Origin: Spirochaetota bacterium
GTDB lineage: Bacteria; Spirochaetota; UBA4802; JAFGDQ01
Direction: 5' to 3'
DNA length: 64,000 bases
Assembly: GCA_043803405.1 (NCBI GenBank)
Contig: JAZDKB010000018.1
Span: 160,001 to 224,000 of the forward strand
The notes beneath the pieces were generated by a model. That model made no database searches and was not told the DNA's origin. It worked only from the letters and a program-made list of their open reading frames with translations. Position 1 is the stretch's first letter; the number at the start of each line of letters is the position of its first letter. The translations under genes were made by a program, and so were the position numbers. Below, in pieces: positions 12,716 through 42,023 of this stretch.

Positions 12716-14587
12716 ATGAAAAAATTACTATTTCTGATAATCGCATTTGTTTTTATATTCGGATGCGCTGATTCAAAAATGGCAAAAGTATCGTCCGATG
12801 ATAAAAGCTTAAGAGATGAAGTGGCTGCAGACACATCTTCGGCCAAACAGGACATGGAAAGGGCAAAGGCTTCTTCCGAAGAAAAAGACGCATCCGGCTA
12901 CAAGGAAGCAAAGAAGGCATCTGAGCCGGCATCGCCCTCGAAAAAGAAGAAGAACGGGGACAGCAAGGCGGACATGGCAGCTCCGGCCGGAGCGCCTTCT
13001 CCTCGTGAATCGTCTGCCGGAGCAGGCGTTGGCGGCGGAAGGAGCACAGTGCCGTCATCATCAGGACTAAAGGCAGGCTTTGCGGACGACAATAAGCAAT
13101 TCAATTACTTTGTAAAATTTCTTGAACAGTACAAAGGCTCTGCGAAGCATTATCCTGCAAATATTGAGGAACGCATTATACTTAAAGTATTTGATTTCAA
13201 AAACAAAAGCATAGCCAATGCAAAGATCGATATTTTTGCTGACAAAAAACAATTATGTTCCGGAAGAACATACGCGGACGGCAGCTTTTTGTTTTTTCCT
13301 TCAGAGTACGGGAATAAGCCTGCGGCTTACAGGGCTGTAATTACATCGCAGCAGAAATCAAAAGAAATAAAAATAGACAGGCAGGGCAAACGTGAAATTG
13401 ACGTAAATTTTGACGGGCTTCGTCCTGAGATGAAAAATATTCCTATAGATATTTTATTCATTCTGGACACAACTGGCAGCATGGGCGAAGAGATAAGCAG
13501 GCTTAAAGACACAATAGAAATAATCAATATGAACATCGCGTCCATTTCAAGCAAGCCGAAGGTTCGTTTCGGCATGGTTCTGTACAGGGATAAAGACGAA
13601 GAATACCTGACAAAAATTATTCCGCTTACTGACGATCTTGACAGGTTCAGGGAGGAGCTTAACAAAGTTGAGGCCAACGGCGGTGGAGACGGGCCGGAAG
13701 ATCTCCAGTCCGCATTATCGGATGCGTTAACTAAAATAAAATGGAATAATAACGGCATACGCCTTAGCTTTATTATTACGGACGCTCCCCCTCACATTGA
13801 CTACGGGCAAAAATACACTTATATAAACGCAGCCCGTGACGCGAGACAAAAAGGAATAAAGATATTCTCCGTAGGCACAGGCGGCCTTGATATAAACGGC
13901 GAATACGTTTTAAGGCAATTGTCGCAATACACGTATTCAAAGTATATCTTCCTTACTTACGGCGAAAGAGGCGAGGCTGAAGGCGGGAAGGAAGGCAGCG
14001 TGAGCCATCACACAGGCGCGAATTTTCAGACCGACAAGCTCGAGAGCATAATCATCCGCTTTGCAAAGGAAGAGCTTTCTTTTCAGTCGGATAAGCCTCT
14101 GGAACAGGGAGAGGAATTTATTCAGGCTGTTAAAATAAAAGACGAGCAGAACGAAGCGACACTTAAAAAGCTTAATGACATGTGCATTGCACAGCTTATT
14201 GATTATTCGTCAATAGGCATTCCTTTGGGTACAACTGTAAGCGTAATTCCCTTTGCTTCGGACAACAAAGCGCTTAAATCAAATGCCGAGTATTTTACAG
14301 AACAGATGGCCTTTTCGCTTGCCAGGAACAAGACATTTAAAATAGTTGAACGCAAGGATATGCAGAAAATCCTTAAAGAGCTTGAACTTCAGTTTACAGG
14401 CCTTGTTAAGGATGAAAGCGCTGTTAAGGCAGGCAAACTCATCGGCGCAAAAATGATAATTACAGGAAATATTTACGAAAAGCCAGCCAATTATGAGATA
14501 TTTTTAAAGCTGCTGCGCGTTGAAACAGGGGAAGTGGTTTCCGTTAACAAGCTAAGAATAGACAGAATGCTTGGACTTTCAAAATAG
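12716..14587 (+). CDS. VWA-domain lipoprotein with C-terminal FlgO/CsgG-like domain
   Basis: Lipobox IFGC; low-complexity linker; MIDAS LDTTGSM, GGGDGPED, ITDAPPH; C-terminal IVERKDMQKILKEL..AGKLIGAK..LLRVETGEV. Confidence 0.8.
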   Translation: MKKLLFLIIAFVFIFGCADSKMAKVSSDDKSLRDEVAADTSSAKQDMERAKASSEEKDASGYKEAKKASEPASPSKKKKNGDSKADMAAPAGAPSPRESSAGAGVGGGRSTVPSSSGLKAGFADDNKQFNYFVKFLEQYKGSAKHYPANIEERIILKVFDFKNKSIANAKIDIFADKKQLCSGRTYADGSFLFFPSEYGNKPAAYRAVITSQQKSKEIKIDRQGKREIDVNFDGLRPEMKNIPIDILFILDTTGSMGEEISRLKDTIEIINMNIASISSKPKVRFGMVLYRDKDEEYLTKIIPLTDDLDRFREELNKVEANGGGDGPEDLQSALSDALTKIKWNNNGIRLSFIITDAPPHIDYGQKYTYINAARDARQKGIKIFSVGTGGLDINGEYVLRQLSQYTYSKYIFLTYGERGEAEGGKEGSVSHHTGANFQTDKLESIIIRFAKEELSFQSDKPLEQGEEFIQAVKIKDEQNEATLKKLNDMCIAQLIDYSSIGIPLGTTVSVIPFASDNKALKSNAEYFTEQMAFSLARNKTFKIVERKDMQKILKELELQFTGLVKDESAVKAGKLIGAKMIITGNIYEKPANYEIFLKLLRVETGEVVSVNKLRIDRMLGLSK

Positions 14588-18645: not shown

Positions 18646-18676
18646 GTGACATTAATATCCTTCATATTTGTTTAAT
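18646..18676 (+). promoter_or_regulatory. Candidate ECF promoter, copy 1
   Basis: GTGACA-N17-TGTTTAAT upstream of the OM barrel gene; the same motif occurs at 21503 and 24263. Confidence 0.65.
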
Positions 18677-18759
18677 CAATAAAGCAATTCAGCGCATGAG
18701 TGTTCTGTTGTTTTTCATTATTAGCTGTGTGCGCTGATAAAATTAAAAAGGAGGTCATA

Positions 18760-19461
18760 ATGAAAAGCATGTCAAAATTTTTTGCCGTAATTTTAGCAGT
18801 ATTCCTCTTTGGCAATTCCGGAATCTTTGCCCAGGAAGCGGCAAAGGCCGCAACTGAAGCGGAAAAAATAACTAACACCGGCGAAACGCAGGATAAACCG
18901 AAGCGCGAGGTGAGTGCGCTTTTTAAAGGCATTGGGAAGGATACTTACATTTCCGGTTACGGTGCGCTTACGGGGTCATACTCAAGGATCAAAGGAGAAG
19001 ATGCGTTCCTGCCCGGCTTCCGTGCTGGACTCATACTGGATAACCTGGTAATTGGCCTGAGCGGCACATGCCTTGCGCATCCGAATAAAAGGAGCGACTT
19101 CGGGGATAATTCATATACGGACGGGAAAGACTACGTGGACTTCAGCTATGGAGGCGCAATGGTCGAATATTACTTCTTCCCGCAAAAACTGGTGCATTTT
19201 TCAATAGGCACTGTGATCGGCGGAGGAAGCCTCAGGTTTTCGTCAGACAGGGATGACGACGATGACAATGACAACAGGGGCGGGGATAAATTTTTCGCAG
19301 TGGAGCCAGAAGCGAATGTTTTCATAAATCTTGCAAGGTTCTGCCGCGTCGGCATAGGCGGTTCGTACAGGTACATCAATGGCCTGGATAATGATACCTA
19401 TAAAGACAGGCATTTCAACGGCGCGAATGTTAAACTGGTAGCAGCTTTCGGATGGTTCTAG
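18760..19461 (+). CDS. Small outer-membrane beta-barrel protein
   Basis: Start MKSMSK at 18760 after AAGGAGG; signal peptide ending IFA; SGYGA, YGGAMVEY, VEPEANV, GGSYRY strands; C-terminal FGWF. Confidence 0.75.
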   Translation: MKSMSKFFAVILAVFLFGNSGIFAQEAAKAATEAEKITNTGETQDKPKREVSALFKGIGKDTYISGYGALTGSYSRIKGEDAFLPGFRAGLILDNLVIGLSGTCLAHPNKRSDFGDNSYTDGKDYVDFSYGGAMVEYYFFPQKLVHFSIGTVIGGGSLRFSSDRDDDDDNDNRGGDKFFAVEPEANVFINLARFCRVGIGGSYRYINGLDNDTYKDRHFNGANVKLVAAFGWF

Positions 19462-19535
19462 GGCAATAGCACATACAGGGGCAGGGGCTGTATCACGCTA
19501 AAAAAAGCAGATTTGTTTATGATAATTTTTGCTGT

Positions 19536-19575
19536 AAATCCCCCCTACCCCCCTTTAAATAAAAAAGGGGGGTAG
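19536..19575. repeat. REP-like palindrome, second copy of the 1290 family
   Basis: AAATCCCCCCTACCCCCCTTT-aaataaa-AAAGGGGGGTAG; 12-bp stem. Confidence 0.65.
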
Positions 19576-19643
19576 CCGTTTCGCCTCAAACGATTTAAAT
19601 TTATAAATAGCTTAAAAATAAATTATTCAAGAGAGAAAAAAAA

Positions 19644-20285
19644 ATGTCTGATACATTATACCTTGTAGGTTATGCCGAAACCTTTGTTTTTATTATGCTT
19701 CTTGCGGCAAGCATAATAGCACTGGCAGTAGGCATAGAGAGGACTGTAATATTCAAAAGGAATACAAATAAAAAAATAGATCTGTTCGTCAGCCGGTTAA
19801 TTGAGCTGTTCCGCAGCCGCAACATTAAAGCCGCTGCCGCGCTGGTAAAGGAAACAGGAGAAAACGTATATACACGTTTTGCGGACTTTTCAATGCATCA
19901 GGCGGAAAAATACGGAAGCGATCTGCCCGAACTTATGTCCGGTAAAATAATAGAGGAAAAGATGTTTCTCGAAAAGCGGCTTACAATATTGAACACTCTT
20001 GGAAACAACGCGCCTTTCATAGGCCTGCTCGGCACAGTGCTCGGCGTTATTAAAGCATTCTACGGGCTTGGCACGCTCGGCAGCACAGGCGCGGAAGTGG
20101 TAATGCGCAGCATCTCAAAGGCTTTGCTTGCTACGGCAGCAGGCCTGTTCATAGCCATACCCGTAGTCATGGCAAACAATTACTTTTCAAAAAAAGTGAA
20201 GATCATTACCCAGCATCTTGAAATTTTTTCCAGAGAAATAAACGCGAGCCTTCGCGCAAAAAAAAAGAATGCAAAGAGTGAATAA
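19644..20285 (+). CDS. exbB: MotA/TolQ/ExbB proton channel
   Basis: APFIGLLGTVLGVIKAF; ALLATAAGLFIAIP. Confidence 0.9.
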   Translation: MSDTLYLVGYAETFVFIMLLAASIIALAVGIERTVIFKRNTNKKIDLFVSRLIELFRSRNIKAAAALVKETGENVYTRFADFSMHQAEKYGSDLPELMSGKIIEEKMFLEKRLTILNTLGNNAPFIGLLGTVLGVIKAFYGLGTLGSTGAEVVMRSISKALLATAAGLFIAIPVVMANNYFSKKVKIITQHLEIFSREINASLRAKKKNAKSE

Positions 20286-20304
20286 ACAAAAGAGGTAAAT
20301 TGCA

Positions 20305-20706
20305 ATGTCAATATTTTCAAATTCGGAAAGCGACGAGATAGGGTACATCAACATTACTCCAATGGTAGATGTTCTGCTTGTGCTCCTTGTCATATTCATG
20401 GTAACAGCGAATTTTTTAAAGATGGAATCCGTAAACATAAACCTGCCAAAGGTTAACTCGGCTGATCCCAATATCGCGAAATCAGTTCAGATTGCGCTTA
20501 CGAACAACGGCAGGCTTTTAATGGAGGACAGCGAAATCACTGAAGAAAGAATGCTAGCAAGGCTTTCGCAGGAAGCCAGGTACAGGCCGAATGTGAGGGT
20601 AACGCTTTCCGCTGATGAGCGCCTTGCATACGGGAAAATAGCGCACGCGATGGGCATTATCCGCCAGTCGGGCGTTACGCGAATTGCTTTGTCCGTAAAG
20701 CGCTGA
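20305..20706 (+). CDS. exbD: ExbD/TolR
   Basis: INITPMVDVLLVLLVIFMVTA; LSADERLAYG. Confidence 0.9.
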   Translation: MSIFSNSESDEIGYINITPMVDVLLVLLVIFMVTANFLKMESVNINLPKVNSADPNIAKSVQIALTNNGRLLMEDSEITEERMLARLSQEARYRPNVRVTLSADERLAYGKIAHAMGIIRQSGVTRIALSVKR

Positions 20707-20719
20707 TGCATATAAAATT

Positions 20720-21379
20720 ATGATAAAAATATATCATCAAATAATTCAAAAGTTCAGAATGATGGATCTTTTCAGGCGATGCGTCAGCATTTCATTCAGC
20801 CTTCATCTGTTATTTATCGGTACATATTATCTTTCCAGTATGCCTGCTTTCAGCTCGGATGCCGGTGAAGTCTTTGACAGCCGGAACATAAGCTTTAAGA
20901 ATACGGAAGTTGATTTTGTCGATCTTCCGCCTTCCGTTATTTTGGGCGGTGACACAAACCCGGCTCCGGTACAGAAGGAAGAATGGGTGGAGGGCACAGG
21001 CAGGGGCAGGCCCGATGCGGGCAATACAGACGTAAATATAAACAAGCTCTCAGGCACAGGCACTGACCCGGACGGGTACATGTTCGCGGATCTCGCGGAC
21101 CATCCTCCAGTGCCGATAATCGATTTTAATCCGGACGATTTTTTTCCGCAGGCAGCAAGATCTGCGAACATTCACAGGAGCACAGTGCTTGTTGAAGTCC
21201 AGGTAAACGAGAACGGCTCTGTTAAAAATTTCAGGCTATTGTCCGCAGCTTCAGTATACGGTTTTGACGAGGCAGCAGTCAAAGTGCTTTCAAGGATGCG
21301 CTTTCGGCCCGGAAAGGTAAACGGCAGGCCTGTAAAAATGCTTGCGCGCATGCCCCTGGTATTTGCCCTGGAAGACTGA
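20720..21379 (+). CDS. tonB: TonB energy transducer
   Basis: N-terminal SFSLH anchor; C-terminal FPQAAR..GFDEAAV..FRPGKVNGRPV. Confidence 0.85.
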   Translation: MIKIYHQIIQKFRMMDLFRRCVSISFSLHLLFIGTYYLSSMPAFSSDAGEVFDSRNISFKNTEVDFVDLPPSVILGGDTNPAPVQKEEWVEGTGRGRPDAGNTDVNINKLSGTGTDPDGYMFADLADHPPVPIIDFNPDDFFPQAARSANIHRSTVLVEVQVNENGSVKNFRLLSAASVYGFDEAAVKVLSRMRFRPGKVNGRPVKMLARMPLVFALED

Positions 21380-21385
21380 TGCATA

Positions 21386-21473
21386 CTAGAACTCATCTCA
21401 AAATTAGATTTTATTGTGTTTTAATCAATCCTGAATAGTTCCTATAAATTAATAATCTTGAGATAAGTTGTAG
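21386..21473. mobile_element. 88-bp MITE-like element
   Basis: CTAGAACTCATCTCAAAATTA ... TAATCTTGAGATAAGTTGTAG: 21-bp inverted termini with 3 mismatches; no ORF inside. Confidence 0.5.
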
Positions 21474-21502
21474 AAATCTCATTAAGAGTCCATCCCGGAA
21501 TA

Positions 21503-21533
21503 GTAACACTTTCGCTGCCCTCCCGTGTTGAAT
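21503..21533 (+). promoter_or_regulatory. Candidate ECF promoter, copy 2
   Basis: GTAACA-N17-TGTTGAAT, 50 bp upstream of the TonB-dependent receptor. Confidence 0.65.
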
Positions 21534-21583
21534 AATAAAAAGATAAATTTAATATTTTATTCATTCAATAAAGGGCCAGCGAT

Positions 21584-23983
21584 ATGTCATTATATCAAAA
21601 CAAATCTTTTTATTTATTTGTCATAATTATTTTTTTTATTATGAAAGTCTCTGTCATTCATGCGCAGGCAGCAAAAGATGAATCTCCTGCTGCGGCAGAA
21701 CAGCCCGTGAAAGAAGCAGGCATTGCTGAAAACAGTGAAGCGCAAAAGCCGGGCGACCCCTCCTCACAGAACGCGGCTGAAAATGAAAAGGCAAAAACAG
21801 ACAGCAAAGAGACTGTGCTAAAGCCGCTCGTGATTCGCGGTTCAAAGGCGCGCGACAAGAAGAAGCCGGACATACAGAGCATCTCGCGCCAGACAATGAC
21901 TACCGAGGACATGAAAGAGGTTCCTGCTTCATTCGGGGATTCGGTTAGCGCTCTAACTTCGCTTCCGGGAATAACGCGCGAGGGAGGGAGCATATTCGGC
22001 GACCTTGTGATCAGGGGCGCCGATCCCATGGGCAACAAATATTTTGTCGATGATATTCCGCTCTATGATCCTCTGCATTTCGGAGGGATTCATTCTGTAA
22101 TCAATACGAACTTAATAAAGGATATAGACGTATACTCGTCCGCGTTCCCGGCTGAATTCGGATCAGCTACATCTGCCGTTATCAATATTTCCACTATAGA
22201 CAGGGTAAATGATTATGGAGGATATTTCGACGTAAGCCTTCTTTCCGTTAACACGCTTTTAAAAGCTCCCATACTGAAGGACAATAGCAATAACCTTGTT
22301 TTTAACAGGCCTTTAACCGGAGCGGATAATGATATACAGAATGCAGGATTTGTAATTGCGTCCGGAAGGTACGGCTATCTTGGCCTCGCCATAAAAGCCT
22401 CGGATATGATGACAGGCAATGACACACCTGTATCCCCCGAATACTGGGATTACCAGTTTAAGATGAAATATAATTTCAACACTGTACATTCGGCTACAAT
22501 TTTTCTTTTCGGGTTCAAGGATTTTATACGCATACTGATGAACGATGATCTCATGGAATCAGGGGATGATCCGTATATGATGAATGCGAAAATGAGATAC
22601 GAGAGGATATCGCATAATCAGGGACTGTATTTTGATTCGAAATTCAGCAATGACTTAAGCAACAGGATCCTTTTATACAGCTCTTTTACTGATATTAATG
22701 AATACTATGATTTTCCTGCAACAGGCGCTGCCTCATGGGCAAAGGATCTGGGACTGCATACAAAGCCCTGGATATTCGGACTAAAGGATAAGTATAAAGC
22801 AAAATGGCTGGACAGACATGCGGAACTTAGCGGAAGCGCCGAATACACGTTTTATCATTTTACTGCAAAAGGCAATTCCATTATTAACAAAGGAATGTCT
22901 CCTGTACTTGATTTCGGCGATGAAGACGCATTTCAAAGATACAACCTTGATGAAAAAATCATCAACCATGTTTACGGCGGTTACATTGAGAATAAATTTA
23001 TTTTTTCCGGCCTTACTGTCACTCCGGGCATACGGTCAGATCATCTTGTAAGAACAGGCGAGACAACATTTGACCCGAGACTTATGGCGAGCTGCAAATT
23101 TCCAACCAATACAACTATTGGTGCAGCAGGCGGGCATTACAGTTATTTCCCGCAGGTAAACCCGTACATCTTTGGTGAAAACACGGATGTCGCAGGCATG
23201 GGTAAAAAATTAAAATCCGAAAAAGCGTGGCATTCAAGTGTCAGCATTGAACAGGAAATCGGGCTTTTTTCATTTAAAGTTGAAGGATTCAGGAATTATT
23301 ATTATGATGAGCCAATGGCGTATCCTCATTATGAAGCAGACGGCACATATTTCCAGGGATTATGCTCAGGTAAAGAAAAAACCCGCGGATTTGAACTAAT
23401 GCTTCGCAAGGACTCTGAAGAGAGCAATAACGGGCTGTTCGGATGGATGAGCTATACATATACTCGCGCAAAATTTAAAAGCGGCCTGCCTACTACTGCT
23501 AATTTTCACGGAGTCGATCAGGGCTATATTGGAGACGAATACGGCGACAAATGGATCACATCGGAGTACGAGCAGGAGCATAATTTCAAGCTTGTCGCAG
23601 GTTACAGGCTTAACCGGCATATTTTAAGCGGACGTTTTCAGTACTGTTCGGGATATCCGTATACGCCTATTACAGGGCATGACTATGATGAAGATTATAA
23701 TACTGCTACTGGGAAAGACCGGTATATACCTGTATCCGGCGACAGGAATGCAAAAAATTTTCCATCTTATTATTCGCTTGATCTCAGATACACGCATAAG
23801 ACAAATTATTCATGGGGCAATGTAAGCTGGTACGTAGAAGTGATCAATTGTTTAATGAAAAAGCAGGTAAACACACAAAAGTGGTACTGGGACAGACCGT
23901 ATAGTGAAGGCAACAATCCGAAAAACAAATCGGAAGATACTCTTAATTTTATGCCGAATTTAGGAGTTGAAATTAAATTTTAA
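21584..23983 (+). CDS. TonB-dependent receptor
   Basis: Signal peptide; plug region (LTSLPGI, LVIRGAD, IDVYSSAFPAEFG); C-terminal SLDLRY..PNLGVEIKF. Confidence 0.9.
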   Translation: MSLYQNKSFYLFVIIIFFIMKVSVIHAQAAKDESPAAAEQPVKEAGIAENSEAQKPGDPSSQNAAENEKAKTDSKETVLKPLVIRGSKARDKKKPDIQSISRQTMTTEDMKEVPASFGDSVSALTSLPGITREGGSIFGDLVIRGADPMGNKYFVDDIPLYDPLHFGGIHSVINTNLIKDIDVYSSAFPAEFGSATSAVINISTIDRVNDYGGYFDVSLLSVNTLLKAPILKDNSNNLVFNRPLTGADNDIQNAGFVIASGRYGYLGLAIKASDMMTGNDTPVSPEYWDYQFKMKYNFNTVHSATIFLFGFKDFIRILMNDDLMESGDDPYMMNAKMRYERISHNQGLYFDSKFSNDLSNRILLYSSFTDINEYYDFPATGAASWAKDLGLHTKPWIFGLKDKYKAKWLDRHAELSGSAEYTFYHFTAKGNSIINKGMSPVLDFGDEDAFQRYNLDEKIINHVYGGYIENKFIFSGLTVTPGIRSDHLVRTGETTFDPRLMASCKFPTNTTIGAAGGHYSYFPQVNPYIFGENTDVAGMGKKLKSEKAWHSSVSIEQEIGLFSFKVEGFRNYYYDEPMAYPHYEADGTYFQGLCSGKEKTRGFELMLRKDSEESNNGLFGWMSYTYTRAKFKSGLPTTANFHGVDQGYIGDEYGDKWITSEYEQEHNFKLVAGYRLNRHILSGRFQYCSGYPYTPITGHDYDEDYNTATGKDRYIPVSGDRNAKNFPSYYSLDLRYTHKTNYSWGNVSWYVEVINCLMKKQVNTQKWYWDRPYSEGNNPKNKSEDTLNFMPNLGVEIKF

Positions 23984-24074
23984 TAGTGAATGATTCAAAT
24001 CCATTAGATAATTCCAGAATGAGCTAAAATCTGATTTATTGTTTAATTTTAAATTTAGCAGTACTCCGTATAGA

Positions 24075-24200
24075 GAATTGAAATACATAACAAAATTTTC
24101 TGCGGAATCGCACCCTTTTTTTCTGCTTTTCAGTTAATTAAAGGCTTTTAGTTCAGGGTGCGAAAAGCGTCCTCAAAAATTTTGTTATGTATTTCAATTC
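24075..24200. mobile_element. 126-bp MITE-like element with perfect 25-bp terminal inverted repeats
   Basis: GAATTGAAATACATAACAAAATTTT (24075-24099) and its exact reverse complement (24176-24200); inner TCGCACCCT/AGGGTGCGA pair. Confidence 0.65.
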
Positions 24201-24262
24201 CTGGCATTTATGACGGCGTATAGGAGTATCTAAGTTTATAAGCGGAATTATTTTTTAGCAGG

Positions 24263-24293
24263 GTAACAAATAATACGGTTTCAGATGTTTAAT
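24263..24293 (+). promoter_or_regulatory. Candidate ECF promoter, copy 3 (autoregulatory position)
   Basis: GTAACA-N17-TGTTTAAT, 26 bp upstream of the ECF sigma ATG. Confidence 0.7.
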
Positions 24294-24319: not shown

Positions 24320-24808
24320 ATGCAGATCGATGTTGCTGAATATTACAGGAAATACGGGCCAATGGTGCTCAGAAGGTGCAGATTGCTTCTTAAGGATGAA
24401 GACAGGGCAATGGACGCCGTGCAGGATGTATTTGTGAAGCTTCTGCAGAACCAGGACAGGCTGAGCGGCACATATCCTTCGAGCCTGCTTTTCAGAATGG
24501 CAACCAACGTGTGTCTGAATATTATACGTTACGATAAAAGCAGGCCGCAGGCAGACTGCGGCGACATTCTGGCTTACATTGCTGCCAATGATGACATGGA
24601 GAGCAGGATCGCGGTAAGGGATTATATCGAAAGAATATTCGCAAAAGAAAAAGCAACCACAGGCGAACTTGCTGTAATGCACTATGTGGATAAAATGACG
24701 CTTAATGAAGTAGCAGAAATTTCCGGGATGTCTGTTTCCGGGGTCAGGAAGCGTCTGAGAAAATTAACTGAAACAGCGAAATCTCTGGATATGGAGGAAG
24801 AGATATGA
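24320..24808 (+). CDS. ECF sigma factor
   Basis: Region 2 (YGPMVLRRCRLLL..AMDAVQDVFVKL..LFRMATNVCLN) and region 4 HTH (MTLNEVAEISGMSVSGVRKRL); 162 aa. Confidence 0.9.
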   Translation: MQIDVAEYYRKYGPMVLRRCRLLLKDEDRAMDAVQDVFVKLLQNQDRLSGTYPSSLLFRMATNVCLNIIRYDKSRPQADCGDILAYIAANDDMESRIAVRDYIERIFAKEKATTGELAVMHYVDKMTLNEVAEISGMSVSGVRKRLRKLTETAKSLDMEEEI

Positions 24809-25614
24809 ACAATAACCGAATACCCGATATTATGCTTGAAAGATATGTTCTGAAAGAGCTTGACCCGAAAAAGACAAACGAGATCCGCGTGCTTAGTGAA
24901 ACTGATCCGGATATAGCCTCAAGGATAATGGAGATCAGGAAGTCAAACGAAGAAATACTGAGAACGTATCCTGATGACAAGATCACGGCAGAGATAACGC
25001 ATAAATATAATACACAGAATATATCCTGGAAAAAACAGCGCCGCATTCCGGTAAAATATCTGCGCATTATCCCGCCTGTTGCTGTCGCAGCTGCAGCTCT
25101 TGTTGTTTTTATACTGCTTCCGGCTGTTAAAAAAGATGTGGCAATTATAGATACGAATGACATTACAAGGATCAAGGGAAAGGAAACTGCGCTTTACTTG
25201 TACAAAAAAAACAGAAACGGCGAAATTGATCTTATGAAAAACAATTCGGGCGCAAAAACAGGCGATCTGATTCAAATAGGTTACTCAACAATGGAAAATT
25301 CTTATGGCGTGATTTTATCGATAGACGGCAGGGGGAAGGTGACCCTTCATTATCCTGCTAATGAGAAGCAATCATCAAAGCTGCCTGCAGGAAAAAAACA
25401 CTTGCTCGAAAATTCATACGAGCTCGACGACGCGCCGGATTTTGAACGTTTCTTTTTTATAACATCATCTAACGAGATAAATATAGCATCTGTTGTATTT
25501 TCCGCAGAGATGCTTGCAGTTGAAAGGAAAAAGGCAATGACTGAAAATTTAACCTTTCAGTCTCTCAAAAATGAATCGATTAACCAGGTCTCTGTACTTG
25601 TTAAAAAGGATTAG
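24805..25614 (+). CDS. Putative single-pass anti-sigma factor with DUF4384-like periplasmic domain
   Basis: ATGA overlap with the sigma gene; N-terminal IPDIMLERYVLKEL; TM helix (PVAVAAAALVVFILLP); TRIKG; GDLIQIGY..GVILSIDGRGKVTLHYP..SYELDDAPDFERFFFITS. Confidence 0.75.
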   Translation: MNNNRIPDIMLERYVLKELDPKKTNEIRVLSETDPDIASRIMEIRKSNEEILRTYPDDKITAEITHKYNTQNISWKKQRRIPVKYLRIIPPVAVAAAALVVFILLPAVKKDVAIIDTNDITRIKGKETALYLYKKNRNGEIDLMKNNSGAKTGDLIQIGYSTMENSYGVILSIDGRGKVTLHYPANEKQSSKLPAGKKHLLENSYELDDAPDFERFFFITSSNEINIASVVFSAEMLAVERKKAMTENLTFQSLKNESINQVSVLVKKD

Positions 25615-25619
25615 CTTAA

Positions 25620-27911
25620 ATGAAAAAAATATTTAATGTCATTTGTATAATATTTTTCTGTTTTTTTTATATTATAAATATTTCCGGCCTTGAAAAAAAT
25701 ACCATCCGCAGATTTGCTTTAATAGTGGGGGCAAATGACGGAGGCCCTGCCAGGCCAAAGCTTAAGTATTCGGTTTCGGACGCAAAATCAGTTCTGACAG
25801 TGCTTAACGAAATGGGCGGCATTACACGGAACGACAGCGTACTTCTGATTGAGCCTGACAGAAAAATTTTTTTTTCAGGAATGGATTCTGTTATAAAAAA
25901 AATAAAGCAATCAGGAAAAACATCGGATAAAAAAGAACTAATATTTTATTATTCAGGACACTCAGACGAAGAATCCATACTCCTCGGCAAAGAAAAAATA
26001 TCCTACAAGGAGATAAAGGATTTCATAAACAGCACACCTTCCGATGTGCGCATTGCAATACTCGACTCATGTTCATCTGGAGCTTTCACGAGGCTTAAGG
26101 GAGGTAAAATGCGCTCTCCGTTTCTCGTGGATTCCGCATTTAACATGAAGGGATACGCGTTTATGACTTCAAGCTCGCCCGACGAAGCATCGCAGGAATC
26201 TGAAAGAATAAAGGGCTCGTTCTTTACGCACTATCTAGTCGCGGGTTTAAGAGGCGCTGCGGACATGACCCAGGACGGCCGCATCACTCTTAACGAAGCA
26301 TACCAGTTTGCCTATAACGAGACCCTTGCGGGCACGGAGAAGACAATGAGCGGGCCACAGCACCCGAACTACAATATACAGATGTCGGGAACCGGCGATG
26401 TCGTAATGACGGATATACGTAAAAGCTCTTCTTTAATGATTATAAGCACGGAGATATCCGGCAAGCTGTTCATCAGGGACAGTGGGAACAGCCTTGTTTG
26501 CGAATTAAGAAAATCCGCAGGGCGCGCCATGCAGCTTGGGCTGGAGGGAGGAGCATACAGTATCACATACATAAAAGAAGGCAGCCTGTACGAAGCGGAT
26601 ATAACACTTAATACAGGCAAAGAAGTAGTTCTTTCGAATAATGACTTTAAAAAATCAGCTAAAGACAAAACAGTAGCCCGCGGAGATGCAGATAACAGCG
26701 AAAACAAATACGAAACAGTGGAATGGCAATTTTCTCTTTATCCGATGTTTCAGAGGAACAGAAACGTAATTAATAATTTTACGTTTAATCTTTTTGGAAG
26801 CTACAGCGCCCGGTTAAACGGACTCAGCTTTGGACTGGGTCCCGGCATTGTAAAGGAAGATGTAAAGGGGATTCAGCTGAACATTTTTGGAAATTACGCT
26901 GGTGAGAGAGTTGAAGGCGCACAGCTTTCCGTTATTGGCAATTATTCCGGGGGAAATATTACAGGTCTTCAATTATCACATCTTTTTAATATTGCCAGAG
27001 GCAATACAACCGGAGCGCAAGTATCACAAATTTTTAATATTTCAAGAGGCGACTTGACCGGGGCTCAGGTTTCCACAATATTCAACTATAACAGTAAAGA
27101 CGTAAAAGGAACACAGACTTCCTGCATCTTTAATCATGCGCAGCAAAATATTACAGGTCTGCAGCTTAGCGCTGTATATAATTATTCCGGCGAAAACGTT
27201 AAAGGCACGCAGATATCAGCAGTATATAACCACGCAGGAAAAAAAATGACAGGCCTGCAGCTTACCGGTGTCTGCAATTATTCCGGCGATGATGTAAATG
27301 GAACACAGATTGCCGGTGTTGCAAATATTTCGGGTAACGCAAACGGAGTGCAGATTGCTACATTCAATCTTGCAAAGGATTTCAGCGGTGTTCAGCTGGG
27401 CGTCATAAATATCGCGAAAACGCAGAACGGATTGCCTATTGGCCTCATTAATTTTTCCGAAAACGGCGCCATAGAAATCGCAGCATGGGGAAGCACGTTT
27501 ATGGCAGGCAACGCTGGTTTATTGTTCCGTTCGCATTATATTTATACTATATTTTCAGCAAGCTGGAATAATCTTGATGAAAAGATTGATACATCCTTTG
27601 CATATGGATTTCATCTTGGTGTCCATATACCGGTAAGCTCTTTTTACACGGACATTGACGCAGGTTTTATCCATATAGATAATGACAAGATCTTCTCGGT
27701 TAAAGAAAACACTGATCAGCAGGCATTGCAGGGAAGAATATCGATCGGGTATTATATTACAAAACGCATCTCGGTTTTTGCAGGCGCGGGTCTTAGTTAT
27801 ATATATGACAGCGAATTCAATAATGATGACGGAGATACGAGATTTAAGGAAGGAAAATATTCACCGTTGTTCTTTGCCGGAATAAAAGCTGCGTTGTTCG
27901 GCAATGGATAG
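25620..27911 (+). CDS. Exported caspase-like (peptidase C14) protein with beta-solenoid repeats and a C-terminal beta-barrel-like region
   Basis: Hydrophobic N-terminus; RFALIVGANDG, LKYSVSDA, YYSGH (catalytic His), ILDSCSSG (catalytic Cys), GSFFTHYL; 16-aa GxQ..N repeats; amphipathic C-terminal strands. Confidence 0.85.
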   Translation: MKKIFNVICIIFFCFFYIINISGLEKNTIRRFALIVGANDGGPARPKLKYSVSDAKSVLTVLNEMGGITRNDSVLLIEPDRKIFFSGMDSVIKKIKQSGKTSDKKELIFYYSGHSDEESILLGKEKISYKEIKDFINSTPSDVRIAILDSCSSGAFTRLKGGKMRSPFLVDSAFNMKGYAFMTSSSPDEASQESERIKGSFFTHYLVAGLRGAADMTQDGRITLNEAYQFAYNETLAGTEKTMSGPQHPNYNIQMSGTGDVVMTDIRKSSSLMIISTEISGKLFIRDSGNSLVCELRKSAGRAMQLGLEGGAYSITYIKEGSLYEADITLNTGKEVVLSNNDFKKSAKDKTVARGDADNSENKYETVEWQFSLYPMFQRNRNVINNFTFNLFGSYSARLNGLSFGLGPGIVKEDVKGIQLNIFGNYAGERVEGAQLSVIGNYSGGNITGLQLSHLFNIARGNTTGAQVSQIFNISRGDLTGAQVSTIFNYNSKDVKGTQTSCIFNHAQQNITGLQLSAVYNYSGENVKGTQISAVYNHAGKKMTGLQLTGVCNYSGDDVNGTQIAGVANISGNANGVQIATFNLAKDFSGVQLGVINIAKTQNGLPIGLINFSENGAIEIAAWGSTFMAGNAGLLFRSHYIYTIFSASWNNLDEKIDTSFAYGFHLGVHIPVSSFYTDIDAGFIHIDNDKIFSVKENTDQQALQGRISIGYYITKRISVFAGAGLSYIYDSEFNNDDGDTRFKEGKYSPLFFAGIKAALFGNG
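26868..27467 (+). repeat. Intragenic 16-aa (48-nt) GxQ-x5-N repeats
   Basis: GIQLNIFGNYAGERVE / GAQLSVIGNYSGGNIT / GLQLSHLFNIARGNTT ...: nine full units, then four shorter ones. Confidence 0.85.
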
Positions 27912-27977
27912 ATAATAGAACATTAAATATGAGAGGCACTCGCCAGGATGAGAAATCCCGATAAAAACAATTTTATG

Positions 27978-28050
27978 CAGGCCACGAGGGATTTGAACCC
28001 CCAGCCCTCGGTTTTGGAGACCGATGCTCTACCAGTTGAGCTAGTGGCCT
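27978..28050 (-). tRNA. tRNA-Trp (CCA)
   Basis: AGGCCAC/GTGGCCT acceptor stem, TAGCTCAACTGGTAGAGC D-arm, TCGGT-CTCCAAA-ACCGA anticodon arm, GGTTCAAATCC T-arm; 3' CCA not encoded. Confidence 0.95.
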
Positions 28051-30642: not shown

Positions 30643-33390
30643 TTAAGCTTTTTTCATACCTTTTTCAAGCATCGATTCAATTTTATATTTCTCCAGAAAA
30701 TAGATTGTGCTGCCCATTTCGCTTTCGTTTTTATTCAGATTTTTAAATGCTACTTCTCTTACAATAACGCTAACATTCATGCCTTTCTTTTTATCCTGCA
30801 AAAGCTTTGCCGATATGCTCCCTAAATCTTTAAAAGACACAAACCCTGAGGAAGTTTTATCCTGATATATAATATTATAGAATGTTTCGTTATCGCGTCT
30901 TTCAATGAGAGCCGCAAGCGCGCGTTTATTTTCCGAAATTAAAATCAGCTTTCCTTTAACTATTGCCGTTTCATCAACAACAGACAATTCCCCGAACCTG
31001 TCGATCAGCAGCTTATTAATTTTAAATGTATTCTTTTTCTTCTCCGAAATCTGTGCTGTTTTGGTTAGGCGCTTAACAATATTCTGGCAAAAATCATACA
31101 GATAAGTCAGGAATTCCTCCTTCATTGCAATCGGTTTTATGAATGAAAACAAATTCCCGGTTTCATTAACTATATAAGTAAAAAACAGATTTCCTTTTTC
31201 TTCATACGCAGCCGTAAGAATATTGTTTTCAGAAATATTGCGTAGCGCACTTAATGAAGTAAATACCGGGTCTCCGGAGAAAAAACCGTATTCAATTTGC
31301 TTTTTCGGTTTTATAGTTATGGCAGTTAAAAGATTGATTATATTCGGATAAATACCGGTTTCTATTTCTTCACCGTTTCTTATTACCATCACCAGTTTTG
31401 TTCCGATATTTGCGATAAATCCGGCTGATGTTTTTTTCCTGTCTTCGATTATGGCAGCATAGGCTTCTTTAAATAAGCTGATTATTCTTTTAAACGGTTT
31501 TTTATATGGATCAGGCGTGTTAATTGCGCAATGATCTTCAAAACTTTTTTTTAATTTATTGCCGTCTTTTAAAACAGTAAAAAGTATATTAATGAGATCT
31601 TCTTCGGAATTATATTCTTTTAAATATGATTCGCCCCAGCTTGTATGATAAAGAAAATGCAGTGTCTGAATTTCTTCGGGATTTTCAATATTAAAATTAA
31701 CTATTAAGAAATTTAACAGATTAAAAACAGGACTCAGAAAATAATCATTTCTTAAAACGATCCTCTCTTCTTTAAAAAAATTGGAACTTTGATCGAGAAA
31801 GCTCAGTACCTGCTGCTGATTGATCCTTGTGTATCCAGACTGTATGTTCACCCTGGTAAAACCCGGATAAAATATCTGGTTAAGAGATGTCCAGATTAAA
31901 AGTTTCAGCAAATTGCTTTCAGTCTTCAGTGTGGTTGTTATAAAACTGTCGGTTTTTACGGTGTTTCTTTTATACAATCTCCACTCTATGTTGTTAACAG
32001 ATTGATTGACAGGTTCAATATATAATACTGGTTCGGATGGCGTATCCTTAAATGTAATGAACTGTTCAATTTTATCAGGTTCACGCTTAAAATGAGTTTT
32101 AAGTTTCCTGTTCAGTATCATCGCATCATTCTCGGTAACCTTCTTCGCAAGCTTCAATGTCGGGAATTGTTCCGTGATATTTTTATAGCTTAAGAGCATT
32201 AATTTTTTTACCGAGTCCCAGAATTCCATTACTTTATTGAAATCCCATGTGTCAAAATTATCGAGATCCGATATTTTATCCATGTTCCATTGCCATTCTT
32301 TGACATACTGGAACATTATTTCAACTTTATACGGAATATTTTTATTGTCTTTAACCCCCAGGTACTTTGAGAGCTGCGGATCGATTTTAAGGTAAAGATT
32401 TTTCTTAAGCATCTCCAGAAGGTTTTTGTCCCTGATCCTTGAGCTGTAGAAATCATAAACTTCCTTAAACATCATTAAGTACGAATCCAGTACGGTATTG
32501 TCGAATGTGCTGTTTTGCACATTAATTTTAACCTTCTGGCTCATAAGCGGTGAGTCGTTAGTAATTGAAAGATATTTTTCAAGGAGCCCTATTTTAATTA
32601 TAGATTTAAAAGGATTCCCAAGCGATTTTATTATCTGGAAAAGGGCTGCTCCTAAAAAATCTTCCCTGGATATTTCATAAAGATTTCCAAGATCGACAAA
32701 ATCCTTCTCAATCATTTCCTTTGGAAGCCTTGAGAACATCTCGTTATATTCTTTATCTTTTATCAGTTGAGGGACAACCCACCAGAACGGTATTTTTCCT
32801 GCAATAATAATTGAGCTTCTTAGAAATTCATCTTTCAAAACTGCACCTACTGTTGAACCGAATGCTTCTACTTCATCTACCGCAAAAATATTCTGTTTAA
32901 CAAGCTCAACATCATTTATAAAAATATGTACAGGCAGTTTTATTTCCGAAGCAGCCCATTTCTGAACAGCCTCTACTTTTTTCTTGAAAAGCTCAAAAGA
33001 TTCCGGAGATGTTTCTCTGAGGTCTATGCATGCCCAGTAATCGAAGTCGGATTTTTTGTTATACGCGATAGTTCCTATACTGCCCATAATGGCCAGCATC
33101 TCAATAAAAGGGCGTTTGGTCTGTGATATTTCCACCGTAGTTGCAGGAAATTTTCCGCGGATAAATCTTCTTGTATCTTCATCCAGTTCGTAATTGGCTA
33201 TTCCAAGCGGGACATTACCATCAACATATCCCGGAAATTTTTTATGATTAACGCTTAGAAAAAATGGAATGGAATTAATAACTTTTTTTGTATTTGTGTT
33301 GCCTACAAATTGCTGGAAACGCTGATATTTAATTTTATTGAATTCCAGAAATTTATTTTTATTGTTTTCGATTTGTTCCAAAAATTCCAT
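30643..33390 (-). CDS. cyaA: Class I adenylate cyclase
   Basis: MGSIGTIAYNKKSDFDYW (GS..SDxD nucleotidyltransferase signature of class I AC), LKDEFLRS, AGKIPFWW, DLGNL, KSLGNPFKS. Confidence 0.85.
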   Translation of the reverse strand: MEFLEQIENNKNKFLEFNKIKYQRFQQFVGNTNTKKVINSIPFFLSVNHKKFPGYVDGNVPLGIANYELDEDTRRFIRGKFPATTVEISQTKRPFIEMLAIMGSIGTIAYNKKSDFDYWACIDLRETSPESFELFKKKVEAVQKWAASEIKLPVHIFINDVELVKQNIFAVDEVEAFGSTVGAVLKDEFLRSSIIIAGKIPFWWVVPQLIKDKEYNEMFSRLPKEMIEKDFVDLGNLYEISREDFLGAALFQIIKSLGNPFKSIIKIGLLEKYLSITNDSPLMSQKVKINVQNSTFDNTVLDSYLMMFKEVYDFYSSRIRDKNLLEMLKKNLYLKIDPQLSKYLGVKDNKNIPYKVEIMFQYVKEWQWNMDKISDLDNFDTWDFNKVMEFWDSVKKLMLLSYKNITEQFPTLKLAKKVTENDAMILNRKLKTHFKREPDKIEQFITFKDTPSEPVLYIEPVNQSVNNIEWRLYKRNTVKTDSFITTTLKTESNLLKLLIWTSLNQIFYPGFTRVNIQSGYTRINQQQVLSFLDQSSNFFKEERIVLRNDYFLSPVFNLLNFLIVNFNIENPEEIQTLHFLYHTSWGESYLKEYNSEEDLINILFTVLKDGNKLKKSFEDHCAINTPDPYKKPFKRIISLFKEAYAAIIEDRKKTSAGFIANIGTKLVMVIRNGEEIETGIYPNIINLLTAITIKPKKQIEYGFFSGDPVFTSLSALRNISENNILTAAYEEKGNLFFTYIVNETGNLFSFIKPIAMKEEFLTYLYDFCQNIVKRLTKTAQISEKKKNTFKINKLLIDRFGELSVVDETAIVKGKLILISENKRALAALIERRDNETFYNIIYQDKTSSGFVSFKDLGSISAKLLQDKKKGMNVSVIVREVAFKNLNKNESEMGSTIYFLEKYKIESMLEKGMKKA

Positions 33391-40950: not shown

Positions 40951-41039
40951 ATTCGGACTAAAAAGTACTTGCGAAAATATTTTCGTTTATCTAATAATTT
41001 GAGCATATATTTTTTATAAAGGATTTGTATTACTTTAAA

Positions 41040-42023
41040 ATGACAGAAAAAGATTTACTTATTGAAAAAATACAATTGCTCCGCAATGCGAGTCTTTTTT
41101 CAAAGTTGAGAGAAGCCGAGCTTGAGATAGTCGCGGCCTACAGTGAATACTATACTTTTAACCAGGGACAGACTATATTCAGCGAAGGAAGCAATGCCGA
41201 AGTGCTTTACATTATTAAGGACGGCGAGGTTTTAATCAGCAAGGAGAAGAAAAACCTTGGTGTTATCGATCTTGCCCGTTATATTTCCAATGAAAGCTTC
41301 GGCGAGATGAGCCTTCTTACAAATAAATCCAGAACCGCAAAAGCGGTTGCGGAGAAGGATACAACAGTACTTATTTTTCCCATGGAAGGAGTAAAGTTTA
41401 AGGATGTTCTTGAAAAGCATCCGGAAATTTCGGCGCGTATACTGCATAAATTTTTGGCCATAATCGCAGGAAGAATACGCAACACCAACAGGCTTATTTC
41501 GGAGAGAACTCCGTGGATAAGGGATCTGCGCCGGCAGCTCTACAGCGATAAGCTCACAGGGCTTTATAACCGCACATTTATTGAAGAAGATTTTGCTGCG
41601 TTCCTGCCGCAGTACGGGGAATACACAAGCCTCATTATGATTAAACCGGATAATTTTAAGGATATTAACGATAATTTCGGACATGATGTAGGCGACAAGG
41701 TTTTGCGGCTTCTAGCGATCTTTTTGCAGTCCATCCTTAGAGAAGAAGATATGGGAGTACGGTACAGGGGAGACGAGTTTGCTGCAATTCTGCCGAACAC
41801 AAGCACCGAAGAAGCGATAGAGATTGCAGATGACATAAGGTCGACCATTATGGAAATGGATATAGGAAATGCCACGAACGGCGAGCTGAACAAAATAACG
41901 GTAAGCATCGGGCTCTCGACTTATCCGTTCCATGCGAGCGATAACATTATGCTTGCGGACAGGGCACACGAAAAGATGTTCGAGGCGCGCGAAAAAGGCG
42001 GCAACCGCGTGATCAGCGTGTAG
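41040..42023 (+). CDS. cNMP-binding + degenerate GGDEF protein
   Basis: FGEMSLL..RTAKAVA phosphate-binding cassette; DKLTGLYNR; KPDNFK; RYRGDEF. Start 41040 or 41025. Confidence 0.88.
   Translation: MTEKDLLIEKIQLLRNASLFSKLREAELEIVAAYSEYYTFNQGQTIFSEGSNAEVLYIIKDGEVLISKEKKNLGVIDLARYISNESFGEMSLLTNKSRTAKAVAEKDTTVLIFPMEGVKFKDVLEKHPEISARILHKFLAIIAGRIRNTNRLISERTPWIRDLRRQLYSDKLTGLYNRTFIEEDFAAFLPQYGEYTSLIMIKPDNFKDINDNFGHDVGDKVLRLLAIFLQSILREEDMGVRYRGDEFAAILPNTSTEEAIEIADDIRSTIMEMDIGNATNGELNKITVSIGLSTYPFHASDNIMLADRAHEKMFEAREKGGNRVISV

Follow-up and report, generated by a model that had tools for sequence, protein, structure and literature searches.

The 64-kb stretch of a Spirochaetota genome analysed here (C18:160001-224000 of the source assembly; the window in what follows) contains an extracytoplasmic function (ECF)-type sigma factor gene, which heads a small operon together with genes for a putative anti-sigma factor and an exported caspase-fold protein. 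Upstream of this operon lie genes for a small outer-membrane β-barrel protein, for the TonB energiser proteins ExbB, ExbD and TonB, and for a TonB-dependent receptor. Three copies of a two-box motif, GTRACA-N17-TGTTKAAT, are found in this region: one upstream of the barrel gene, one upstream of the receptor gene and one upstream of the sigma gene itself. Judging from their sequence, position and conservation, the three sites are very probably promoters recognised by the adjacent ECF sigma and form a small local regulon. An autoregulated ECF sigma with such a regulon is of a textbook kind, and the promoter code and the caspase/TonB wiring are new to the literature searched.

A two-box motif found three times in the genome

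The motif matches the window exactly three times, always on the + strand. Site 1 (18646..18676, GTGACA-N17-TGTTTAAT) is located upstream of the barrel gene and possibly serves exbB-exbD-tonB as well, site 2 (21503..21533, GTAACA-N17-TGTTGAAT) is located upstream of the TonB-dependent receptor gene, and site 3 (24263..24293, GTAACA-N17-TGTTTAAT) is located upstream of the sigma gene, where it would be autoregulatory. All three are intergenic and each precedes a + strand gene, with 83 nt between motif end and ATG at the barrel gene, 50 nt at the receptor gene and 26 nt at the sigma gene. The 17-nt spacers of the three copies are unrelated to one another. An earlier sequence-only reading of this DNA had claimed three equally spaced intergenic copies on the + strand with unrelated spacers; the pattern scans of the window and of the whole genome, and a comparison of the three copies, bear out both points.

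The same reading had proposed a scan against a shuffled background. In 100 dinucleotide-preserving shuffles of the window the mean number of matches is 0.01, and none of the 100 reaches three. The source assembly (3,975,434 bases in 54 contigs, GC content 39%), scanned on both strands, contains the same three strict matches and no others, so that all of them fall within 5.6 kb. No additional match appears genome-wide when spacers of 16-18 nt are allowed. The source genome contains 14 copies of the shorter core GTRACA-N17-TGTT.

Conservation of the motif alongside the sigma family

Orthologues of the sigma factor, 47-83% identical to it, are present in 16 of 40 related genomes. Two same-genus genomes, G001 and G002, were used for footprinting. 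G001 carries a site before the sigma gene, a site before the receptor gene (the receptors are 80% identical) and a site upstream of the barrel/exbB block (exbB 85% identical). In G002 the same three sites are kept although 9 kb of unrelated genes part tonB from the receptor gene. In alignments with both genomes the AGTRACA and TGTTnAAT blocks stand out as invariant stretches between divergent spacers and flanks.

The signal extends far beyond the genus. A scan of one genome per species, queried with an alignment of 14 sigma sequences, yielded at least 575 relatives of the sigma factor, and the best 80 loci were analysed. They come from Spirochaetota, Myxococcota (Archangium, Myxococcus, Nannocystis and Haliangium), Fibrobacterota, Acidobacteria and others. 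In 49 of these loci, whose GC content ranges from 0.29 to 0.74, the strict pattern GTRAC-N18-TGTT is found no more than 100 nt upstream of the sigma start. This corresponds to 2.04 matches per kb upstream of the sigma gene versus 0.025 per kb in the remaining 1.65 Mb (a ~80-fold difference), and the reversed control pattern is found 0 times upstream of the sigma gene and 11 times in the rest of the same 80 loci. In most loci the motif stands 14-50 nt before the sigma start codon. The motif search upstream of orthologous sigma genes, another check put forward by the sequence-only reading, thus returned the two-box signal from several phyla.

A family consensus and a position weight matrix (PWM) were built from 44 unique sites, all of them outside this genus; the matrix covers the two blocks, and its spacer columns are omitted. 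The consensus reads (G/A)GT(G/A)ACA(g/c)nT...(G)G-TGTT-nnA or, in short form, (G/A)GTRACA-N17-TGTTnnA. Positions that had played no part in the selection of the sites are conserved as well: G or A at -1 in 44/44 sites, A at +5 in 38/44 and T at +8 in 32/44, followed in the 3' part by G at +22 in 39/44 and A at +29 in 37/44. The part conserved family-wide is GTRACA...TGTTnnA only, and the final AT of TGTTKAAT is a genus-level feature. A PWM site on the same strand lies within 1.5 kb upstream of the sigma gene in 73 of the 80 loci and within 150 nt in 59; among the 36 loci kept out of training, 29 have one within 1.5 kb. Where the site is distant, another module gene intervenes, which encodes a barrel homologue, a 415-residue secreted protein or an LA_2272-type protein.

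Applied to the 7,946,332 positions of the source genome, this matrix puts the receptor site in 1st place with 20.6 bits; the barrel site comes 7th (14.7 bits) and the sigma site 10th (14.3 bits). Six of the other seven top-ten positions are flagged as lying within open reading frames (ORFs) by a crude ORF flag. Two of these seven, candidates for further regulon sites, were inspected and rejected: C19:255345 is antisense within a 622-residue gene, and C19:255890 is a terminator-like hairpin at the 3' end of a gene. The PWM scan thus yields no convincing fourth site in the source genome, where the other hits above 14 bits outside the window were judged by the crude ORF flag. The prediction for this genome is therefore three promoters, all of them local.

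An initial matrix from seven sites that included the spacer columns was dropped. Its top hits fell in CheA coding sequence and were false positives, because GC-rich spacer columns match the DISGRGVGMD box that is conserved in the kinase. Outside the window the genome encodes at least three CheA paralogues (C19:91692, C53:2631 and C30:41199), and their DISGRGVGMD box is a trap for scans of this sort.

In the portion of the Corynebacterium glutamicum work covered here (PMC6338062), the -35 element of sigma-D is defined experimentally as GTAAC(A/G) and the -10 element of sigma-H as GTT. Both boxes of the present motif are thus of ECF type. The sequence-only reading had proposed ECF promoters and autoregulation of the sigma gene, and the phylogenetic footprint speaks for both.

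Could the three copies be chance matches, or remnants of a local duplication, with no function? The degenerate positions of GTRACA-N17-TGTTKAAT were picked after inspection of the three copies, so the pattern was defined post hoc, and short matches arise easily in intergenic DNA that is rich in AT. Against this stand the shuffles, none of which gives three copies, and the lack of any other match in 3.98 Mb. The spacers are unrelated, and the orthologous positions are conserved in G001 and G002. Moreover, a matrix trained outside the genus places the sites 1st, 7th and 10th genome-wide. We consider this explanation hardly credible.

A second alternative is that the sites are regulatory and are read by another ECF-type sigma factor or by an activator or repressor that binds a two-box DNA element. 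The source genome has at least three other weak ECF-like sigma matches (C3:98486, C16:41291 and C23:73878). However, the motif travels with the present sigma family across phyla and keeps its place 14-50 nt before the start codon, which is the signature expected of autoregulation. The boxes are asymmetric, have a fixed spacing and are always oriented towards the gene, as is typical of promoters and unlike the site of a dimeric regulator. There is also no top PWM hit (above 11 bits) beside the other three sigma genes. This alternative appears improbable.

Several further observations weigh against recognition of all three sites by the adjacent sigma. In G001 and G002 the core pattern is found 13 and 10 times, respectively, versus 19 and 15 times for the reversed control; because the core does not exceed the control in these relatives, the strength of the motif lies in its extended conservation and its position, not in core counts. 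Site 3 has A at +22, where 0 of the 44 family sites have A, and site 1 has T-T where most family sites have G-G. Sites 1 and 3 score ~6 bits below site 2. Seven of the 80 loci lack a PWM site in the 1.5 kb that precede the sigma gene. Finally, the compared loci share kinship, and the counts are not of independent events.

Genes behind the sites and the extent of the proposed regulon

The gene behind site 1 encodes a protein of 233 residues (18760..19461, + strand). Its ATG at 18760 follows AGGAGG, and the longest ORF starts from GTG at 18700. The protein has no Pfam or NCBIfam match. Its AlphaFold2 model, calculated from an 11-row alignment (mean predicted local distance difference test score, pLDDT, of 73.8), contains eight long strands, and its best Foldseek matches in the PDB are NspA (E 3e-6), Ail, the OmpA transmembrane domain, OmpX and OmpW. 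According to this model, the product of the first gene is an eight-stranded outer-membrane barrel. The gene is single-copy in the genome (tblastn). In other lineages, homologues of the barrel adjoin the sigma operon or are fused to the caspase.

The barrel gene is followed, also on the + strand, by exbB (19644-20285, Pfam MotA_ExbB), exbD (20305-20706, Pfam ExbD) and tonB (20720-21379, Pfam TonB_C). The genome has three paralogous exbB-exbD-tonB clusters, and the copies on C20 and C43 are 59-80% identical to the window copy at the protein level (ExbB 74-75%). No motif is found within 1.5 kb upstream of these two paralogous clusters, where the best scores are 0.2 and -0.7 bits. Within 1.5 kb upstream of exbB in the window, site 1 is the sole hit, and none lies directly before exbB.

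The 182-nt gap between the barrel gene and exbB contains a GC-rich hairpin with an 11-bp stem (19546..19574, + strand), which is not followed by a T-tract. G002 has another GC-rich hairpin in the same gap; the structure is kept and the sequence is not. The element is possibly an attenuator or an RNA-stabilising structure.

Whether exbB-exbD-tonB belong to the regulon depends on this gap. It may be that these three genes have a promoter of their own, of a housekeeping type, that the hairpin serves as a terminator, and that the regulon consists of the barrel gene, the receptor gene and the sigma operon. A stable hairpin does part the barrel gene from exbB, and site 1 is 83 nt away from the barrel ATG. 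The energiser cluster of the window is, besides, a recent paralogue of the two other clusters. On the other hand, the hairpin lacks a T-tract and a terminator scan lists nothing in the gap. The order barrel-exbB-exbD-tonB behind the motif is kept in both G001 and G002. Furthermore, in a Myxococcales genome (G041) the motif stands directly before exbB, and in the Fibrobacterota locus L128 a site heads a DUF3450 gene with exbB ~1 kb further downstream. A separate promoter for the energiser genes is possible and, on this evidence, rather unlikely; transcription of exbB-exbD-tonB from site 1 is probable. We infer their co-transcription and do not claim it more firmly because a hairpin, albeit one without a T-tract, occupies the gap.

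Site 2 precedes a TonB-dependent receptor of 799 residues (21584..23983, + strand). Pfam finds in it a Plug domain only (residues 100-197) and no STN domain, and Atlas features and a structure search match it to clusters of TonB-dependent receptors. The genome holds two paralogous receptors. The second, on C53, is 55% identical and has no motif (best score 8.0 bits within 1.5 kb), so that the window copy alone carries one. ExbB, ExbD, TonB and a Plug-domain receptor are thus encoded together in the window according to Pfam.

The insert between tonB and the receptor gene in G002 (L022 10744-19899) is absent from the source genome (G000). It encodes an fn3/cadherin-like protein of 1155 residues, a methyltransferase, an epimerase, a TetR protein, a metallo-beta-lactamase-fold protein and a LytTR regulator, and no motif is found within these genes. 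Because the G002 receptor gene keeps its own motif behind this 9-kb insert, the receptor gene is regarded as a separate transcription unit.

A second site is present in many of the 80 loci, where it is oriented divergently to the sigma operon or lies behind the caspase gene, on its downstream side. The genes behind the second sites mostly have no Pfam match, and by sequence inspection their products have signal-peptide-like N-termini and aromatic C-termini. They include barrel homologues of 218-270 residues that end in GWF, LA_2272-type repeat proteins of 364-397 residues that are homologous to the C-terminal half of the window caspase, proteins of ~200 residues that end in SLGW, a copper-monooxygenase-like protein (Nannocystis) and a cyclase. 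As judged from their sequences, the usual extra targets of the family, in addition to the caspase itself, appear to be small secreted proteins that resemble outer-membrane barrels. The regulons of the family would thus point to the outer membrane: eight-stranded barrels, repeat proteins and the barrel-like anchor of the caspase.

TonB-system genes occur within 6 kb in 4 of the 80 loci, namely the two same-genus loci, L067 and L103, and are linked to the motif in 3 of the 80. L067 was not counted as a TonB link, as its adjoining receptor gene has no motif. A sigma-54-like element, TGGCAC-N5-TTGC, is found upstream of that receptor gene (~740-790 of L067) in place of the ECF motif. L103 belongs to G041, a Myxococcales metagenome-assembled genome, and has a site of consensus quality, GTAACACTT...GGTGTT, directly before exbB. 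The order of elements in this locus is the site, exbB-exbD-tonB, a receptor of 867 residues, orf375, a second site and the sigma/anti-sigma/caspase genes. The G041 receptor has the architecture TonB_C + CarboxypepD_reg + Plug, unlike the window receptor. The G041 ExbB is 32% identical to the window ExbB, compared with 74-75% between the window ExbB and its own genomic paralogues, which fits a separate recruitment of the energiser genes.

A dedicated sample of Fibrobacterota comprised 41 genomes, 14 of which have a sigma match with E 1e-25 or better; 13 of the 22 places listed were analysed. A site lies just upstream of the sigma gene in 11 of these 13 loci. In five (L119, L123, L125, L127 and L128) a site also stands before a TonB-dependent receptor gene downstream of the caspase gene. 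The Plug domain is confirmed by Pfam in L123, L125 and L127; in L119 and L128 the tblastn hits are only fragmentary and cover short ORFs. Behind the receptor, L125 and L127 encode a DUF4249 protein, and a further site heads a DUF3450 gene in L125, L127 and L128.

From sequence comparison, coupling to a TonB-dependent receptor, in most cases together with ExbB-type energiser genes, is a minority and lineage-specific feature of the family. It recurs in three phyla, and the parts used there do not appear to be orthologous. Such a recurrence suggests a real functional tie between the caspase module and TonB-powered transport. The sequence-only reading had gone further and described the whole block as one sigma-controlled unit with TonB-dependent import as its output. 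The TonB link is strengthened by its recurrence in two other phyla. The rest of that description is narrowed in two respects: the outputs across the family are mostly barrels and the caspase, and exbB-exbD-tonB are placed under site 1 with the reserve set out above.

Two observations on myxobacteria may be added. The Myxococcota receptors seen here (L115 6356-8959 of G041, and Atlas rows 5-9) have an N-terminal TonB_C domain fused to CarboxypepD_reg and Plug domains, which is unusual for TonB-dependent receptors. In Archangium minus (G042, reached via L102; 69% GC) the core pattern has 17 matches versus 7 for the reversed control. Many of these matches lie scattered and have GGTGTT and GTGACAGTT boxes that resemble the consensus. 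Myxobacteria may thus have several paralogous modules, or a larger regulon.

The sigma operon and a possible role of the caspase

The sigma factor behind site 3 has 162 residues (24320..24808, + strand). It matches Pfam Sigma70_r2 (E 2.3e-10) and, weakly, r4 and r4_2, and it scores 55.1 bits against the NCBIfam model TIGR02937 (sigma70-ECF), for which the cut-off is 42.9. It carries regions 2 and 4 only, as do ECF (group 4) sigma factors. The gene content given in the sequence-only reading (ExbB, ExbD, TonB_C, a Plug receptor, sigma-70 regions 2 and 4, and Peptidase_C14) is that found by Pfam.

The next gene (24805..25614, + strand), whose start overlaps the sigma stop codon, encodes a putative single-pass anti-sigma factor of 269 residues, referred to below as the +1 protein. 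Its AlphaFold2 model (mean pLDDT 86.5) consists of four N-terminal helices, a transmembrane helix, a disordered linker and a β-rich periplasmic domain. A match to DUF4384 (E 9.4e-5) is below the gathering score; of 41 family members, 11 match DUF4384 with E values up to 0.01. It is a point against the proposed regulation that the +1 protein has no Pfam anti-sigma family match, no PDB profile hit and no significant fold match. A Foldseek search against the PDB gives nothing at E 0.001 or better, only generic Ig-like and β-sandwich hits, and Pfam finds no zinc-finger family, TPR or CHAT domain. The pairing is nearly constant, as 79 of the 80 loci have a homologue of the +1 protein behind the sigma gene. 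As no anti-sigma family, PDB profile or fold matches, the name anti-sigma is given to it on the strength of its architecture and position, which suggest such a role.

The third gene of the operon encodes an exported caspase-fold protein of 763 residues (25620..27911, + strand), with a Pfam Peptidase_C14 domain (residues 30-217), LA_2272-type repeats (NCBIfam) and a C-terminal domain. His114 and Cys151 are invariant in all 41 aligned homologues. A caspase homologue follows the anti-sigma gene in 66 of the 80 loci; of the 14 loci without it, six end at a contig end and eight belong to Myxococcus/Archangium, where tblastn gives no hit. Two architectures are found, one of ~550 residues with a C-terminal domain homologous to the standalone barrel of the window, and one of 700-880 residues with LA_2272 repeats. 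The former is seen in L038, L040, L046, L051, L077, L089 and L111. What looked like a caspase gene plus a separate barrel gene in distant lineages was rejected, as it is one ORF of ~550 residues. Because caspase C-terminal domains are homologous to the barrel, the free barrel genes are regarded as paralogues of the caspase's own membrane anchor.

These elements suggest the following course of events. In the resting state, the +1 membrane protein would hold the sigma factor inactive. An envelope signal would release the sigma factor, possibly via the co-encoded exported caspase, and RNA polymerase with this sigma factor would begin to transcribe a few bases past each TGTT box. Three units would be raised: the sigma/anti-sigma/caspase operon, which amounts to positive feedback; the TonB-dependent receptor gene; and the gene of the small outer-membrane barrel together with, by read-through of the hairpin, probably exbB-exbD-tonB.

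The arrangement is reminiscent of FecI/FecR/FecA, in which an ECF sigma likewise has an adjacent TonB-dependent receptor and TonB energiser genes. Unlike in that system, there is no FecR domain in the +1 protein and no STN domain on the receptor; instead, the +1 protein carries a β domain that resembles DUF4384, and the operon includes a caspase gene. The absence of FecR had been claimed in the sequence-only reading, and neither FecR nor STN is found among the 49 window ORFs of 110 residues or more that were scanned with Pfam. With no FecR and no STN, the activating step must differ from classical receptor-to-sigma signalling.

The caspase is a candidate activator because its gene is constantly adjacent, its catalytic dyad is intact and there are two precedents for a caspase-fold protease linked to the control of a sigma factor. 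The first is DdvS/DdvA of Myxococcus xanthus (PMC6061681, PMC11506125). As described in the parts of these papers covered, an ECF sigma with a single-pass anti-sigma is tied there to an extracytoplasmic caspase-fold protease. In DdvA a TPR-CHAT module is fused to the anti-sigma (PMC6061681), whereas here a separate Peptidase_C14 protein is encoded; the DdvS/DdvA regulon is a CRISPR-Cas/CBASS (cyclic oligonucleotide-based antiphage signalling system) defence island, whereas the present one comprises envelope and uptake genes. The second is Craspase (Csx29/Csx30/RpoE; bioRxiv 10.1101/2022.08.17.504292, covered in part), where the sigma factor RpoE is held by a protein that a caspase-like protease cuts. 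Craspase is cytoplasmic and RNA-guided, whereas here each of the three partners has an export or membrane signal and there are no CRISPR genes nearby.

By analogy with these two systems we hypothesise that the caspase makes the cut that releases the sigma factor. In its full form the idea would be that an exported caspase anchored in or at the outer membrane senses an envelope or nutrient cue, cuts the periplasmic DUF4384-type domain of the anti-sigma and frees the sigma factor, which then supplies a receptor together with its own TonB energiser, an alternative to the FecR route that Spirochaetota, Myxococcota and Fibrobacterota would have put together from different parts. This scheme is speculative and should be taken as a tentative proposal. 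A complex prediction for caspase residues 25-350 and anti-sigma residues 108-269, with 41-row alignments for each, scored 0.01 against a mark of 0.32, and no conclusion was drawn from it. A caspase-gated route of this kind would, if it exists, mean that bacterial caspase homologues have a defined physiological substrate. Should the idea prove wrong, the ordinary and useful annotation of an ECF regulon would stand.

With respect to its promoters, the system is closest to the C. glutamicum sigma-D/sigma-H type (PMC6338062; scheme in PMC7826278). So far as these two sources were covered, both have a sigma factor with regions 2 and 4 only, a +1 membrane protein, and an AAC-type -35 and a GTT-type -10 element before their own operon and a few targets. 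What differs here is the +2 partner, an exported caspase, and the set of targets, which consists of outer-membrane and TonB parts.

The ECF classification of Casas-Pastor et al. 2021 (PMC7826278), with the supplement covered in part, includes a group ECF25 from Spirochaetes, Deltaproteobacteria, Fibrobacteres and Acidobacteria with DUF4384-type anti-sigmas. The taxonomic spread of the window family is similar, the comparison with ECF25 being by the written description in the covered portion only. The promoter reported there for ECF25s1 and ECF25s2, the subgroups for which a motif is given, is GGAAC/GTC, unlike GTRACA/TGTT of the window family. Of the features relevant to the ECF25 description, the window +1 protein has one transmembrane helix in its model, a weak DUF4384 match and no zinc-finger family match. 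GTRACA and TGTT at a 17-nt spacing for this sigma family are not among the promoter descriptions of the classification, and its text makes no mention of a caspase neighbour for ECF25, both statements extending to the covered part of the supplement.

The association of the genes themselves has been noted before. According to the portion of Asplund-Samuelsson et al. 2012 (PMC3501461) covered here, M. xanthus has four metacaspase operons with a sigma factor in common, and the sigma/metacaspase structure is also found in Anaeromyxobacter, Haliangium, Sorangium, Ralstonia and Fibrobacter. That report concerns the same gene association as a co-occurrence only; in the text covered there is no promoter, regulon or anti-sigma, and "tonb" has 0 occurrences. 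In a literature search, with supplementary material covered in part, neither this promoter nor its regulon nor a link between caspase, ECF sigma and TonB was found to be described.

ECF sigma factors are among the main means of signalling in bacteria, and most ECF groups are without a known signal, promoter or regulon. A widespread sigma family of at least 575 relatives now gains the promoter code (G/A)GTRACA-N17-TGTTnnA, with which its regulon can be predicted in any genome. Cultured relatives are found in Myxococcus, Archangium and Nannocystis, and in Fibrobacter according to the covered portion of PMC3501461, so that the predictions are testable.

Beyond the caspase gene the block is bounded by a tRNA-Trp (CCA) gene (27977-28050, - strand), which lies directly downstream of it. 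Genes for FlaA, LpxB and LptE were detected in the window and fit Spirochaetota. Upstream of the block, at 12716-14587 (+), there is a gene for a protein of 623 residues with a von Willebrand factor A domain and a C-terminal LpoB/CsgG-like domain, and behind it lie genes for a B12-binding radical SAM protein and an HD-domain protein; all three are without the motif. A 1616-residue ORF at 35278-40128 (-) combines an alpha-amylase-type catalytic domain with a starch-synthase domain (Glyco_transf_5) and Glycos_transf_1 and is an unusually large fusion. The window further encodes a class-I (enterobacterial-type) adenylate cyclase (30643-33390, - strand; Pfam Adenylate_cycl and Adenyl_cycl_N). Two tandem genes at 41025-42023 (+) and 42142-43113 (+), ~8 kb from the cyclase gene, each encode a cyclic-nucleotide-binding domain together with a GGDEF diguanylate cyclase domain. 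The adenylate cyclase and the two GGDEF proteins could constitute a relay from cyclic AMP to cyclic di-GMP in a spirochaete.

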